From: Actinomycetota bacterium
GTDB taxonomy: Bacteria; Actinomycetota; CADDZG01; JAHWKV01
DNA length: 64,000 nucleotides
Reading direction: 5' to 3'
NCBI GenBank assembly: GCA_040905365.1
Contig: JBBDRQ010000061.1
Location: 21,079-85,078 of the forward strand
This document shows positions 23,584 to 29,103 of the stretch, piece by piece (within the stretch, counting starts at the first letter, position 1; every line of letters starts with the position of its first letter). Position numbers and translations under genes: made by a program. Under the pieces are notes generated by a model. It was not told where the DNA came from. It searched no databases and saw only the letters and a list, made by a program, of their open reading frames with translations.

Positions 23584-23657
23584 CTGCGAGGTGGAGCAGT
23601 CTGGTAGCTCGTCGGGCTCATAACCCGAAGGTCGTAGGTTCAAATCCTACCCTCGCA
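23584..23657 (+). tRNA. tRNA-Met (anticodon CAT)
   Basis: Cloverleaf: acceptor TGCGAGG/CCTCGCA, D-arm GAGC-AGTCTGGTA-GCTC, anticodon arm TCGGG-CTCATAA-CCCGA, T-arm GTAGG-TTCAAAT-CCTAC, discriminator A. CCA is not encoded. Three G-C pairs at the base of the anticodon stem are initiator-like but the 1:72 pair is Watson-Crick, so initiator versus elongator is ambiguous. Confidence 0.85.
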
Positions 23658-23677
23658 ACTAGATTTCAGGCACAAAT

Positions 23678-23708
23678 GAGGCCCCCGGGGAACTTCCGGG
23701 GGCCTTTT
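23678..23708 (+). terminator. Rho-independent terminator downstream of tRNA-Met
   Basis: AGGCCCCCGG - loop - CCGGGGGGCCT followed by TTTT. Confidence 0.65.
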
Positions 23709-23973
23709 AACTGTCCGCTCACCTCGCTCACGAAAGATCGAAGCTGGCCTTACTCCATACTCCATGTTTGCGGCGAGTAAGTCTTCGCAGGAATTTGCGC
23801 ATCCGCAGTGAAGGGATCGAAGCCTTCTGGGGTGTAGTCGTCCAGGTACCAATCGACGACGTACCTTTCCTGGTCGTGATGGGTGCTCGGAGCTGGGTTT
23901 TCATGGATACGCAGTCGGAACAGGGAAATCACCTCCGAAGTCTTGTCTACCCTGCCGCGGGTAGTGCCAGGTT

Positions 23974-24432
23974 CTACTTATGCACTACCTGGGTGTGGGC
24001 GGCCAGGTCTCCTAGGCGCTGCCTTTTTGAGGAGACCAGAACCGTGATGAAGGCCACCAGATAGAAGAACAGTCCGTCAACAATGCGCAGAACCGTCCTA
24101 ATGGTTGCGGGGCCCAGCCCCGGGACCTCATTCGAATCTTCCTTCACGACCTTGATGCCGGCGACCATCTTTCCGACTGTTTGGCCCAGATAGCCCTCCA
24201 TGAGAATGAAGTACGCGAGCGCCAGCAAGCCGTAGGCGAACGCCGGCAAGCCCGCAAGGTTGGCCTCCCACGTTCCCTGCACGGCCGCGAAGTCGCCGAA
24301 GGCGGATGCCATGGCGGCGAACAGCAGGCCCAAGATGAGGCCGTCGACGATGGTCGCTACCACCCTTTTGCCGGTGACGTGGAAATTCTCTTGTGCCGCG
24401 GTTGCCGAATAACCCACCGTATGGCTGGTCAT
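23974..24432 (-). CDS. RDD-family membrane protein
   Basis: 152 aa from an internal ATG (confirmed as CAT at 24430-24432 on the + strand), with three TM helices and an RDD-like fold. The ORF-track extension to 25077 is antisense to the TlpA-like fragment. Confidence 0.7.
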   Translation of the reverse strand: MTSHTVGYSATAAQENFHVTGKRVVATIVDGLILGLLFAAMASAFGDFAAVQGTWEANLAGLPAFAYGLLALAYFILMEGYLGQTVGKMVAGIKVVKEDSNEVPGLGPATIRTVLRIVDGLFFYLVAFITVLVSSKRQRLGDLAAHTQVVHK

Positions 24433-24604
24433 GTTGCGTTCCCCTTTCGCCGGGTTGCTCTGTGTGGGCAGCCTGACGTCTGCTCGGCGCGGGCGGTAGA
24501 TGCAAGTGGCCCGGCTTCTACGGGGCTTTAGGCCCTTAGCTCGATGTGCAGCAGGTGGCTCGGCAGGTCTGAGCACGGACTTCCCGGCCCTGGGCGTGCG
24601 CCGG

Positions 24605-25469: not shown

Positions 25470-25693
25470 CTGCTTTCCAGCGCTCTACGGCGTCGCTCGA
25501 ACTCTTCCTCGTCGATCTCACCACGGGCAAAGCGCTCCTCGAGAATGTGCATGGCGCGCCCGGCTTCTTTCGACCCCTCGGAGCTCCCCCGGTGTTGCGT
25601 GGCCTGGACGGCCCAAACGATGACCGCGATTAGTCCGCCCCAAAACAGCAGCATCCACAACCACATCCACCAACCGCCGTATCCGTACATCAT
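25466..25693 (-). CDS. SHOCT-domain small membrane protein
   Basis: MMYGYGGWWMWLWMLLFWGGLIAVIVW ... ILEERFARGEIDEEEFERRRRAL. Overlaps the cupredoxin start by 4 nt. Confidence 0.7.
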   Translation of the reverse strand: MMYGYGGWWMWLWMLLFWGGLIAVIVWAVQATQHRGSSEGSKEAGRAMHILEERFARGEIDEEEFERRRRALESR

Positions 25694-25876
25694 CCGTTCG
25701 ACCTCCGTAACTCAAGTGCCTGGGTAGCACACTAGAAGACGTGTCCGCTGGGTTTTAGAGGCACAAGGCCCGGGACTCTAAGGACCTTTGCCGGTCGATC
25801 CGGCGTCGGGTCTCGGCCGCCGGCTCCGGCAATTAGCGCCGTGCCGGCGAGAGGCCCGACATTCCGCTTTGTCGAG

Positions 25877-28828
25877 CTACGTGCGGGACTGTGACGCGGT
25901 GCTGGTTACGTAATTTCCCGGGTCTTCTACAAACTGCTCCCGGCAATGCTCGGAGCAGAAGTACAGGATCTCCCCCTCGTGCTCAACGCTGCCCGCAGCG
26001 CGATTTGGGTCGATCTTCATTCCGCAAACCGGGTCGGTCACTTGCTCCGGCCGTTCGCTGCCCGCGTCGTCGGCCCCAACTTCCACGGCGGGCGTGCCGG
26101 CCAACGCCAGTTTGTCGGTGCTGATGGGATGTGGACGCCAGTGGCGTAGCCGGTTGGCGTTGGTCACCACCGACAGGCTGGAGGCGGCCATAGCGGCCGC
26201 AGCGATCATCGGGCTGAGCTGAACGCCGATGAACGGGTAGAGAACTCCAGCGGCGACGGGAATCCCGACTCCGTTGTAGATAAAAGCAAGGAACAGGTTT
26301 TGCCGTATGTTTCGCATCGTGGCTCGACTTAGGGTAATGGCGGTGACTACGCCGTCGAGCGATCCGGCGATCAAAGTAATGTCGGAGGATTCGATTGCCA
26401 CGTCGGTGCCGGTGCCGATTGCAAATCCGATATCGGCCTGAGCAAGTGCCGGAGCGTCGTTTATGCCGTCGCCGACCATTGCCACTATTGAGCCTTCGTC
26501 CTGAAGGCGGCGTACCTCCAGAGCCTTGTGCTCGGGCAGCACTTCGGCCAGAACTCGTTCCACGCCTACCTGTCGGGCTATGGCGGTGGCGGTGCGAGCA
26601 TTGTCACCGGTGATCATTGCCACGGTCGGACCCAGCGCCCGCAATGCAGCAATGGCGGCGGTGGACTCTTCCTTGATGGTGTCGGCGACCGCGATGACGC
26701 CGCCAGGACCGCCGTCGACAGCCACCAGCATGGGAGTGCGGCCGGCTTCGGCAAGCCGCTCGGTCTCGGCGGTTAGCTGGTTGGTGTCGACGGAGGCGTC
26801 GTCGAGCAACCGGCGATTGCCGATGAGCACCTCGCGTCCGTCCACCAAGGCGCGGATACCCTTGCCGGTGATGGAGTCGAACTGGGCAGGCGCAGCCAGT
26901 TCCAGCCCGCGCTCACGAGCACCGGCCACTATGGCCCGAGCCAGGGGGTGCTCGGAGGACTGCTCGGCGGAGGCGACCAGGCGGAGCAGTTCGTCCTCGT
27001 CGATTCGTCCGACCGCGGTTACGTCGGTGAGTGCGGGTTCACCGCGTGTGATGGTGCCCGTCTTATCCAGCACTATCGTATCGATCTTGTGTGCGGTCTC
27101 CAGGGCTTCGGCCGAGCGGATGAGAATCCCCTGCTGCGCACCCTTGCCGGTGGCCACCATGATCGACAGCGGTGTCGCCAGGCCCAAGGCGCAAGGGCAG
27201 GCGATAATCAGCACGGAAACCGCGGCAATCAGCGCAAGAGTGAGCGCCGGCTGAGGCCCGACCAGGAACCAGGTCACGAAGGTGCCGACCGCAACGAACA
27301 TGACCGTCGGCACGAAGTACGAAGACACCAGATCCGCCAGGCGCTGAATAGGGGCTTTGGAGCCCTGGGCCTGTTCTACGAGTTTGATAATCTGCGACAG
27401 CATCGTGTCGGCGCCGACTTTGGTGGCCCTGAAACGAAAAGCGCCGGTCTGGTTGATGGTGGCGCCGATAACCGTGTCTCCAGCATCCTTGGTGACCGGT
27501 ATGGATTCGCCCGTGACCATGGACTCATCTATGGTGGAGCGCCCGTCGATGACCTCGCCGTCCACGGGGATCTTATCCCCGGGCCGAACCAGGACGACAT
27601 CGCCCGGGACCACATCTTCGATGGGAATCTCCAGCTCGGCCCCGTCCCGGATGGTTGTTGCGGTGCGGGCTTGCAGACCGATCAGCTTACGGATGGCCTC
27701 CCCGGTACCGGCCTTGGCCCGAACCTCCAGCAGGCGACCCAAAAGAATCAAGGTGATGATCACTCCGACGGCTTCGAAGTAGACCGCTCGAACTCCGGCG
27801 GGAACCAGTGTGGGTGCAATAGTCACGAATAGGCTGTAGCCGAACGCGGCGATGGTCCCGATGGTAATGAGGCTGTTCATGTCGGCGGTCCGGTGCCGCA
27901 TAGTCAGCCAGCCGGTGCGGTGTATCGGCCACCCCGCGTAGAGCATCACAGGCGTTGCCAATGCCAGTTGCACCCACCGGTTCATTAGGAAATCCGGCAC
28001 CCACTGGGCGGCAAAAAGGTCTGTGGCCATGACCGCGACCACCAGCGGTGTGGATAGGACCGCCCCCACCAGAACGCGGCGAGAAAGATCCTTGATCTCA
28101 GCCTGGCGCTCGGCCGCCTCGCTGTCTTCGGTAGCCGCGGTGCCGGGTGCCTCCCGGGGGACGAGCCGGTAGCCGGAGTCGGCCACGGCGGTTTGCAGAT
28201 CCGCGGAGGTGACCTTGCTCGGGTCGTACTCTACCATCGCCCGCTGAGTTCCCAGACTCACATCCACCCGGTCGACGCCCGGAATTTCGGTGAGCATCGA
28301 CTCGATGTTGACCACGCACGACGCACACGACATGCCGCTGACGCGGAATTCTGCCTGCTCGGTGGAAACCGTGCGTTCCGTAGACGGTCCGACGCCGACG
28401 GCCTGCGCCACGGGCCGGTGCTCGTCAGGTGCGTCGGACTCGGAGGACGAGCCTTCCGGCTCCACGACTAGGGTTCCATGGATCATGTTCATCCCGCACG
28501 CGAAGCTGAACTCGCCTGCCCGGTCGGGAGTGAACTGAAGGCTAGCGGATCCGTAGGCCGGCAGCGTCTTGGAAACAGCGAAGTCGGGGAAAACCACCCG
28601 GGAAGTGCAGTCGCCGGCTTCTTGACGGTCGAACACGAGCCGTAGAGGCACTCCTTGCCGCACCCTGATCAGGTCCGGCGAGTAGCCTCCTTTAACGGTT
28701 ACGTTGACCTCCTGGACGCCGCCGACCAAATCCGCCCGGCGGGCCTTTTTTGGTCCGAAGAAGAACCATCCCAGGAACGCTGCAACTGCGACGCCGGCCA
28801 AGACGACGATCGTATCGATCGAGCTCAC
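25877..28828 (-). CDS. copA: Copper-translocating P1B-type ATPase: N-terminal TM + cupredoxin-like domain, one HMA (GMSCASC), C-terminal YHS/TRASH domain
   Basis: [16 protein letters not shown]; N-terminal [16 protein letters not shown]; C-terminal VCGMKID ... [11 protein letters not shown]. The GTG start follows GGAGG. Confidence 0.9.
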
Positions 28829-28852
28829 GAAAAACAGACCTCCACCTAGACT

Positions 28853-28869
28853 GTACCCCTACAGGGTAC
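28853..28869. promoter_or_regulatory. CsoR-type operator-like inverted repeat GTACCCCTACAGGGTAC (overlapping CTGTA-CCCC-TACAG) about 25 bp upstream of copA
   Basis: TACCC ... GGGTA resembles known CsoR/RicR operators. No csoR-like ORF is present in cis. Confidence 0.45.
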
Positions 28870-29103
28870 GTGTATCAAAGATCTAATCTACCGCCACGTT
28901 TATACGACTTTGAAATGCGCGGCCAGTTGCTTTAAGGGCCAAAAGACCCTTGATCGTCGGGCAGGGCCTTTCTTCATAAAAGTCTCCGGCGAGGTGATGT
29001 AGGGCCAGGAGCGGTTAACTGCGCGGGCATCACCACCTTTTTGCATGAGCTTAACGATACGTAAACAACAAGTCTGTTACGTTTCGTTTGACCAGGAGGT
29101 CTC

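Follow-up and report, generated by a model that had tools for sequence, protein, structure and literature searches.

The window analysed here is a 64,000-nucleotide (nt) stretch of contig JBBDRQ010000061.1 (positions 21,079 to 85,078, forward strand; assembly GCA_040905365.1) from an Actinomycetota bacterium of an uncultured lineage. At 23.6-29.1 kb, between a tRNA-Met gene and the start of a beta-carbonic anhydrase gene, it carries on the minus strand copA, the gene of a Cu(I)-exporting P1B-type ATPase, followed by genes for a small SHOCT-domain membrane protein and an anchored cupredoxin; an RDD-family gene, a small open reading frame (ORF) and, on the plus strand, the remnant of a TlpA-like gene complete the region (Table 1). 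The original prediction, made from the DNA letters alone, took this region for a copper-handling module, and its domains, its P1B-1 motifs and a conserved CsoR-type box at the copA promoter bear this out; the features that it had named are nearly all there. The locus is a conventional copper-detoxification and copper-export locus of a known kind, and a modest variant of it, in that a CupA module is fused to the pump, a SHOCT-cupredoxin cassette accompanies it and csoR is not adjacent. Loci fetched for comparison are given below by L numbers and homologous proteins by P numbers.

Table 1. Features of the copper locus and of its two edges, in window positions.
Feature	Position	Strand	Evidence
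tRNA-Met (CAT)	23585-23659	+	ARAGORN; Rfam 71.3 bits
Terminator-like perfect 9-bp hairpin, GGCCCCCGG-N7-CCGGGGGCC, then TTTT	23680-23708 (hairpin 23680-23704)	+	Sequence
Small ORF (60-75 amino acids, aa)	23750-23932	-	No family
RDD-family membrane protein, 153 aa from ATG 24435	23974-24435	-	Pfam RDD, E 4.6e-23
TlpA/ResA/redoxin-type thiol:disulfide oxidoreductase lipoprotein pseudogene	~24500-24958	+	Translation, NCBIfam
N-terminally anchored extracytoplasmic cupredoxin, 150 aa	25017-25469	-	Pfam Cupredoxin_1, Copper-bind, SoxE
SHOCT-domain small membrane protein, 75 aa	25466-25693	-	Pfam SHOCT, E 7.9e-9
copA-SHOCT spacer, 183 nt, strong GC-rich hairpin, no U tract	25694-25876	-	Fold -81.6 kcal/mol, z = -2.48
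copA, P1B-1 Cu(I)-exporting ATPase, 983 aa, GTG start	25877-28828	-	Pfam, NCBIfam, motifs
Sigma-70-type copA promoter, TTGATA-17-TACAGT	28850-28878	-	Promoter scan
Putative CsoR/RicR-type operator, GTACCC-TGTAG-GGGTAC (TAC-N9-GTA)	28853-28869	.	Sequence, conservation
Second palindrome, AGGGCC-AAAA-GACCCT (AGGGNC-N4-GNCCCT)	28935-28950	.	Pattern scan
Start of beta-carbonic anhydrase gene	29104	+	Domain search

Each part of the multidomain CopA that the original prediction had described, i.e. a transmembrane (TM) helix, a cupredoxin-like domain, a single HMA domain, the P1B core and a C-terminal YHS domain, was found by domain scan. Pfam places Cupredoxin_1 at residues 17-122 and HMA at 161-220, with E1-E2 ATPase, Hydrolase and a YHS domain (930-975) after them, and the resulting layout is a TM helix (7-25), a CupA-type domain (30-123), an HMA domain with MSCASC at 166, a core of eight TM helices and YHS at 935-962. 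The extra N-terminal helix appears as a hydropathy peak at 7-25 followed by the basic stretch PKKARRA, equivalent to a single TM anchor. In P1B-1 pumps the CPC signature lies in TM4, YN in TM5 and MxxSS in TM6. The full set of P1B-1 signatures is present in this protein (CPC at 544, DKTGT at 588, SEHP at 625, GDGIND at 786, YN at 851 and MAASS at 880), and it scores 618.5 bits against TIGR01511 (cutoff 397) and 644 bits against TIGR01525 (cutoff 346).

A phmmer search of the PDB with the N-terminal domain matched the CupA structures 2mry and 4f2e with an E-value of 3.9e-28 over residues 30-123, and the metal-binding domain of pneumococcal CopA (4f2f) more weakly, with an E-value of 3.3e-12. 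The domain is 55-60% identical to CupA and keeps the four Cu ligands (C74 and C111-G-M113-N-M115) of its binuclear Cys/Met Cu(I) site. At the level of sequence it is a close homologue of the Cu(I) chaperone CupA of Streptococcus pneumoniae, and the pump as a whole joins a TM-anchored CupA module to an HMA domain, the P1B-1 core and a YHS domain. The original prediction had called this architecture unusual, which a survey of homologues does not support. Among the best 120 CopA homologues, at 65-80% identity and labelled Ilumatobacter, Acidimicrobiia, Mycolicibacterium, Mycobacterium, Actinomycetia and Dehalococcoidia, the N-terminal domain (Cupredoxin_1, PF13473) occurs in 120/120, HMA in 114 and YHS in 71, and the CupA-like module was found in 1151 cluster representatives at E <= 1e-10, in carriers that range from stand-alone proteins of ~120 aa up to fusions of ~1000 aa. 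Some proteins hold two or three tandem CupA-like modules (P0142, 744 aa; P0146, 1017 aa; P0284, 774 aa), which suggests an expansion of Cu(I) domains in some pumps. The architecture is common but under-described in the literature. The role of CupA as a membrane-anchored Cu(I) chaperone has been described (PMC7558416, PMC5552934), and a 2020 review held CupA to be confined to a few streptococci (PMC7558416). Contrary to that limit, CupA-type Cu(I) modules are widespread and often fused to actinobacterial CopA, and this spread of the fusion bears on the evolution of chaperone-to-pump copper transfer.

The only sigma-70-like promoter found across 23400-29300 is that of copA. On the coding strand the copA leader reads TTGATA-cacGTACCCTGTAGGGG-TACAGT-ctaggtggaggtctgtttttc-GTG, which implies a leader of ~15-20 nt with GGTGGAGG preceding the GTG start; transcription is predicted to begin near 28843. 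The CsoR-type box, 24 nt upstream of the GTG, spans the spacer of this promoter and reaches three bases into the -10; its arms are complementary at 6/6 positions with the full TAC-N9-GTA pattern intact. The likeness to CsoR/RicR operators that had been claimed for this palindrome is upheld, as it fits by sequence both the Streptomyces CsoR consensus ATATACCCCTNAGGGGTATAT, with its general TAC-N9-GTA rule (PMC3902906), and the box of the Mycobacterium tuberculosis ricR promoter, TACCCCGCTGGGTA (PMC3944814). A single TACCC-N5-GGGTA site in 64 kb is by itself within chance expectation; what gives the box weight is that it sits within the promoter and is conserved in orthologous loci. We compared it with 11 orthologous loci in which copA stands first (L033-L042 and L061), which represent at least eight distinct contexts and have no flanking homology to the window. 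The exact pattern, whose absence from orthologous copA leaders had been named beforehand as what would speak against the idea, lies within 140 nt upstream of copA in 10/10 of L033-L042, or in nine copA-first loci by another count, and L061 has a one-mismatch copy upstream of copA. Of all 60 fetched loci (~0.85 Mb), 50 do not have the exact pattern. In the proximal boxes (window, L036, L037, L038 and L042) the right arm continues into a TAnnnT -10-like hexamer. The palindrome is thus a real and conserved element and a putative operator of the CsoR/RicR type, with repressor binding predicted from its form and place, and it could help, as a marker, to reconstruct the CsoR regulons of uncultured Actinomycetota.

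No homologue of csoR, copY, cueR, merR or copZ was found in the 64-kb window by tblastn, for which the queries were CsoR, CopY and CueR sequences together with five CsoRs and MerR, DUF302 and HMA proteins taken from orthologous loci. This agrees with the earlier statement that no CsoR gene lies in cis. The operator had also been set in contrast to the lack of a CsoR-sized ORF in cis, but this arrangement is no anomaly: two copZA operons of S. lividans are controlled by a CsoR that is not linked to them (PMC3902906) and RicR of M. tuberculosis acts on five loci (PMC3944814), and because such unlinked targets are documented, an operator without an adjacent csoR is expected biology. Most orthologous loci have a PF02583 csoR gene close to copA: it lies directly downstream of copA, sometimes behind merR, in L033-35, L039/40 and L042, and in L037 it lies 4.6 kb from copA, across an IS21 insertion. 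The CsoRs of the orthologous loci keep the Cu(I) ligands Cys36, His61 and Cys65 (M. tuberculosis CsoR numbering). In L036, L041 and L061 csoR was not found within the fetched flanks (5-8 kb), yet the box is retained. CsoR paralogues are common in these genomes, with two within 10 kb in L039. The IS21-family element of L037 (12689-15087; transposase and IstB) stands between copA-DUF302-LemA and csoR and is direct evidence of mobile-element remodelling of copper loci. In L036, a Mycolicibacterium metagenome-assembled genome, the copA orthologue adjoins LpqS and a PALP (CysK2-like) gene, and the one extra exact match to TACCC-N5-GGGTA lies just upstream of a stand-alone CopZ-like HMA gene (L036 6345-6785, 5115-6233, 12650-12971). 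Both LpqS and the CysK2-like gene are known as neighbours in the RicR regulon of M. tuberculosis.

The second palindrome lies ~57 nt upstream of the copA -35. Its general form, AGGGNC-N4-GNCCCT, is matched once in the window, where 0.17 matches are expected. In other loci the same form abuts a distal CsoR box upstream of copA (L033-35, L039/40, L041, L061) and occurs upstream of SHOCT(-methyltransferase) operons (L039, L041, L042), its combination with a distal CsoR box being found mainly where a MerR gene follows copA. The matches lie at L033 7926-7941; L039 3982-3997 and 7908-7923; L041 2911-2926, 4729-4744 and 7928-7943; L042 4772-4787; and L061 369-384. This palindrome is probably bound by another regulator, for which the MerR encoded after copA in orthologous loci is the foremost candidate.

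Downstream of copA, the stop of SHOCT and the start of the cupredoxin gene share 4 nt. An operon had been suggested for the block from such overlaps; only the SHOCT and cupredoxin genes have one, and between copA and SHOCT lie 183 nt with a stable hairpin, which could be a partial terminator or a processing site. Protein search and locus look-ups provided the contexts of the SHOCT-cupredoxin pair, which adjoins a P1B ATPase in 4/4 of them (window, L059, L060, L062), three times out of the four a CopA of the present type. SHOCT orthologues of the cassette type, 67-72% identical, stand beside cupredoxin orthologues in L059, L060 and L062. The order in L062 is SHOCT-cupredoxin-copA, and its CopA is 80% identical over 483 aa with the same CupA and HMA layout; L059 has the same order, with a frameshifted copA that encodes the same CopA type at ~80% identity; and in L060 the 3' end of an ATPase gene is followed, after a gap of 520 nt, by SHOCT-cupredoxin. 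Permuted gene order is usually taken as a sign of functional linkage, and SHOCT, cupredoxin and copA form a recurrent module in which the order is permuted. A more distant SHOCT subfamily is found a few kb from copA in L033, L038, L039, L041 and L042. No CsoR box was found upstream of SHOCT in the available upstream sequence of L059, L060 and L062, and the aligned SHOCT upstream regions reveal no convincing shared element.

Across 11 homologues of the cupredoxin the type-1 copper ligands H97, C132, H137 and M142 do not vary, and the HPH..MM motif that follows the N-terminal hydrophobic segment hardly does. The AlphaFold model has a confident beta-sandwich at residues 51-150, with block-mean predicted local distance difference test (pLDDT) values of 86-97. 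The structure nearest to it, 4hcf, is that of a Cupredoxin_1 protein from B. anthracis with bound copper (TM-score 0.90-0.96), and the next matches are FtrB, CuA domains, AcoP and auracyanins. Protein search gave only ten close homologues, at 55-64% identity, and a metagenome scan gave only distant relatives (31-44% identity) that are not CopA-linked. The best NCBIfam match is CopI, at 54.5 bits for NF051440 (cutoff 280) and 15.3 bits for NF047895 (cutoff 200), and these scores place the protein as CopI-like at best rather than as a member of the CopI family. The cassette of a SHOCT peptide and a blue copper protein is a candidate for copper handling outside the membrane in Gram-positive-type cells.

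The truncated TlpA-like gene of the original prediction is indeed present and lacks its 3' part, but its strand is the plus strand (it and the cupredoxin gene are convergent) and not the minus strand to which it had been assigned. An in-frame TGA (24902-24904) takes the exact place of the first Cys in WCPTC, and the translation of 24500-25120 reads ...NHVAMWFWAPW, a stop and then PTCNAEASDVAQVVREYE...; redoxin homologues (P0132-P0141, 166-211 aa) align through this TGA. The homology ends at ~24955-24958, ~17 codons after the TGA and near residue 87 of the homologues, with ~80-100 residues of the fold missing. The NCBIfam matches to StoA, ResA, TlpA and DsbE cover the CxxC region only, and other fragments of the gene were sought in the 64-kb window and not found. 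The remnant has neither an intact CxxC nor a complete thioredoxin fold. A reading of the TGA as selenocysteine (UxxC) was rejected: shuffled versions of the downstream RNA fold as well as the RNA itself (z = -0.19), no structure resembling a selenocysteine insertion sequence (SECIS) is present and the fold is truncated, and for these reasons we regard the gene as a pseudogene and not as a selenoprotein gene. The cupredoxin stop (25017) lies 59 nt beyond the break in TlpA homology, and the truncated gene marks an internal recombination junction at ~24958-25016.

On the other side of the tRNA, the upstream UPF0182 gene has relatives at 84% (L001), 63%, 60% and 52% identity, and its adjacency to tRNA-Met recurs in L001-L007, L009 and L025; the genes further upstream are conserved as well. 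The blastn homology to L001 ends at 23708 and that to L007 at 23705, directly after the terminator, whose hairpin is the last sequence in common with the closest relative and the left edge of a lineage-specific stretch. None of the genes from RDD to ImuB was found downstream of tRNA-Met in any relative compared. The window genes with which synteny resumes encode an extracytoplasmic function (ECF) sigma factor (45835-46500), a PdtaS-type kinase (48424-49893), WhiB (49900-50394) and Ku (51315-52139); orthologues of the ECF sigma gene lie 1.6-8 kb after the tRNA in L003, L005 and L009, with PdtaS, WhiB and Ku further downstream there or in L025. By these comparisons the lineage-specific stretch is estimated at ~22 kb (~23709 to ~45.8 kb), between tRNA-Met and the ECF-sigma/PdtaS/WhiB/LigD-Ku block. 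Besides the copper genes it holds genes for the beta-carbonic anhydrase, ImuA'-ImuB, a glyoxalase, MMPL/TetR, urease (36.4-40.2 kb) and a urea-type ATP-binding cassette (ABC) transporter (40.9-45.7 kb). The GC content is raised (0.65-0.70) at 30-33 and 36-40 kb, and no dnaE2 was seen among the neighbours of ImuA'-ImuB examined. Near the left edge, at residues ~876-917 (~23.2-23.4 kb), the UPF0182 protein has a C-terminal (PE)n repeat, which is also seen in L001 and has a (PV)n counterpart in L007; it is a fast-evolving low-complexity linker.

In L025 (12891-16412) a gene for a 378-aa tyrosine integrase (13940-15076, minus strand) lies beside tRNA-Met, with a 48-nt partial copy of the tRNA at 16365-16412, 3.4 kb away. 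Partial tRNA copies of 45 nt (L003 12884-13852) and 70 nt (L009 1884-3158) are found 0.9-1.2 kb downstream of tRNA-Met. These integration scars in distant relatives make tRNA-Met a hotspot in the clade. Relatives of the CopA core and YHS region, 65-70% identical, lie on actinobacterial plasmids, and together with the occurrence of ~78%-identical CopA across classes they show that the gene family moves horizontally. AbiEi/AbiEii toxin-antitoxin genes a few kb from copA, in L061 (4773-6538) and L033 (17761-18952), hint that the module often lies in accessory or mobile regions.

The remaining features are minor. The RDD match occupies residues 235-360 of a listed 367-aa ORF that is over-extended upstream; the start in Table 1 was read together with its ribosome-binding site. 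This gene had been counted as a member of the copper module and we reject it as such, as none of the 13 related copper loci has it. The small ORF directly downstream of it reads ...HHDQERYVVDWYLDDYTPEGFDPF..., has no Pfam or NCBIfam match and represents either a true small protein or what is left of a larger gene. An Rfam scan of 23.3-29.4 kb gave nothing besides the tRNA.

Taken together, we consider it likely that a CsoR encoded elsewhere represses the copA promoter through the box until it binds Cu(I), that CopA exports Cu(I) and that SHOCT and the cupredoxin handle the copper outside. Transcription of copA would start from the sigma-70-type promoter whose spacer and -10 lie under the CsoR-type operator, and a Cu(I)-sensing repressor of the CsoR family would sit on the box at low copper and leave it once Cu(I) is bound, making copA copper-inducible. 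The cytoplasmic CupA-type, HMA and YHS domains may then take up Cu(I) at the membrane's inner face, and the captured ion would be fed to the transmembrane CPC site of CopA or would regulate it. The SHOCT peptide and the anchored cupredoxin, expressed by read-through from copA or from a promoter of their own, would handle the exported copper extracytoplasmically, by CopI-like buffering or oxidation. Four observations weigh against parts of this account. As csoR was not found in the 64-kb window, the repressor is assumed and not seen. The stable hairpin in the copA-SHOCT spacer means that the three genes may not be one operon. In L059 and L062, where SHOCT-cupredoxin stands before copA, the available upstream sequence has no CsoR box, so that the cassette would not always be under CsoR control. 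Lastly, the cupredoxin is far below the CopI cutoff and is without the internal His/Met insert of CopI, and a detoxifying role is assigned to it by analogy.

The first of these observations leads to another reading of the operator, in which the rearrangement that brought in SHOCT-cupredoxin and the TlpA remnant removed csoR, and merR with it, leaving the box as a relic with no cognate repressor and copA either constitutive or under another input, e.g. the second palindrome. The place directly after copA where csoR usually lies is taken here by other genes, and a truncated gene marks a recombination junction ~59 nt beyond the cassette, both of which would fit such a loss, as does the failure to find csoR in 64 kb. 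Against it, the box is intact, with 6/6 complementary arms and the full TAC-N9-GTA pattern, and is placed exactly over the -10; moreover, L036, L041 and L061 keep the box with no csoR found within 5-8 kb, CsoR paralogues are common in these genomes (the two of L039 among them) and regulation in trans is documented (PMC3902906, PMC3944814), and we regard an orphaned operator as improbable. A different objection concerns what the pump is for: the ATPase might serve mainly to load the adjacent type-1 cupredoxin, in the manner of the CopA2/CcoI or CtaA/PacS pumps, with the cupredoxin as an electron carrier, so that the locus would serve metallation and not detoxification. The linkage of cupredoxin and ATPase is tight and recurs in either gene order, and the cupredoxin has a complete blue-copper site and resembles electron carriers of the auracyanin, CuA and AcoP types. 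Against this, a copper-derepressed promoter of the CsoR type is typical of resistance efflux, the neighbours in orthologous loci are csoR, merR, DUF302 and other stress-type genes rather than respiratory ones, the N-terminal metal-binding domains are of the CopA1 style and relatives of the core lie on actinobacterial plasmids beside other metal ATPases. We hold metallation as the main purpose to be very unlikely.

How the copper genes came to lie here is a separate matter from both of these alternatives. According to the original prediction, 23.6-29.1 kb is a discrete island that a site-specific recombinase integrated at tRNA-Met. Synteny breaks exactly after the tRNA terminator, and relatives do not have what follows tRNA-Met in the window, so that this part of the claim stands; the same tRNA hosts an integrase and a 48-nt repeat resembling an attachment site (att) in L025 as well as the partial copies of L003 and L009, the block contains a truncated gene, and at 76-80% identity the CopA family reaches across classes, with plasmid-borne relatives. 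The delimitation does not stand. The non-syntenic stretch runs on to ~45.8 kb through unrelated functions, which makes the right edge at 29.1 kb arbitrary, and the ORFs examined from 23.7 to 45.8 kb include no integrase or transposase. A blastn-short search of the whole window with the tRNA and its flank found no att copy, the longest match to the tRNA 3' end being 13 nt, elsewhere and on the wrong strand (the original prediction had likewise seen no such direct repeat), and no flanking direct or inverted repeats came to light, a repeat search across 23.5-29.3 kb having turned up nothing beyond chance-level pairs. Nor do the copper genes deviate in composition, on which the island claim had been offered for checking: the GC content of the copper block is 0.62-0.65, and for copA the GC content at third codon positions is 0.754 against a window mean of 0.74 +/- 0.07 and the codon-bias distance, 0.185, is the lowest in the window. 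A discrete 5.5-kb island is therefore unlikely. The copper locus was more plausibly acquired or rearranged by recombination as one piece of a composite variable region, a reading that we draw from its proximal place in the lineage-specific stretch and from the decayed TlpA-like gene that it abuts.

As a copper-resistance locus the region is routine, and no point of it overturns current understanding. Beyond the export reading preferred here, it is conceivable, albeit doubtful, that SHOCT and the type-1 cupredoxin form a hitherto undescribed extracytoplasmic accessory module dedicated to the CupA-fused CopA of Actinomycetota, with a copper relay that would run from the cytoplasmic Cu(I) site of the cupredoxin fold through the pump to the outer cupredoxin and with the second palindrome as the mark of a further regulator. 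If this were true, the SHOCT-cupredoxin module would give monoderm bacteria a function like that of CopI or CueO, i.e. to oxidise or buffer copper, and AGGGNC-N4-GNCCCT, common to copA and SHOCT promoters, would mark its extra regulator.

The closest parallel to the cassette is CopI, the periplasmic copper-tolerance cupredoxin of Rubrivivax gelatinosus, which is likewise small, extracytoplasmic and encoded beside copA (PMC7558416, PMC13308877). Both proteins have His, Cys, His and Met ligands of the type-1 kind and a His/Met motif. CopI, however, has a stretch rich in His at its N-terminus and, internally, one rich in His and Met (PMC13308877), whereas the cupredoxin of the window has only the short HPH..MM motif and no insert; it is also membrane-anchored, belongs to a presumably monoderm host and is always paired with a SHOCT peptide. 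In the copY-cupA-copA operon of S. pneumoniae, CupA also partners a P1B-1 CopA. There, CupA is a separate protein and CopA has a cupredoxin metal-binding domain and no HMA domain, while in the window the CupA module stands in cis and a ferredoxin-like HMA domain follows it, so that it is a fused domain of CopA and not a free-standing chaperone that hands Cu(I) over. The two systems differ further in their regulator box, which is CopY-type in S. pneumoniae and CsoR-type in the window, and in their hosts, a Streptococcus and a member of the Actinomycetota.

With the CsoR regulon of S. lividans (csoR-4375, copZA1 and copZA2) and the RicR regulon of M. tuberculosis the window shares the form of the operator, a G/C-tract pseudopalindrome with TAC-N9-GTA and an N5 spacer, and its place, at a promoter that serves a Cu(I) P1B ATPase gene; in those regulons, too, the repressor can be unlinked. 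The window differs from them in that it is without copZ, the chaperone-like domains being fused to the pump, in that csoR was not found in 64 kb and in that its operator is a putative one. Nearest of all are the Ilumatobacter-type loci, in which an ABC transporter is divergent from copA-merR-csoR and SHOCT-methyltransferase genes lie nearby. Their CopA proteins are 76-80% identical to the one described here, with the same domain order, and they likewise have a CsoR box upstream of copA and a SHOCT membrane protein in the neighbourhood. Compared with them, the window is without merR, csoR, DUF302 and the divergent ABC transporter, has the proximal box only and carries the SHOCT-cupredoxin cassette downstream of copA.

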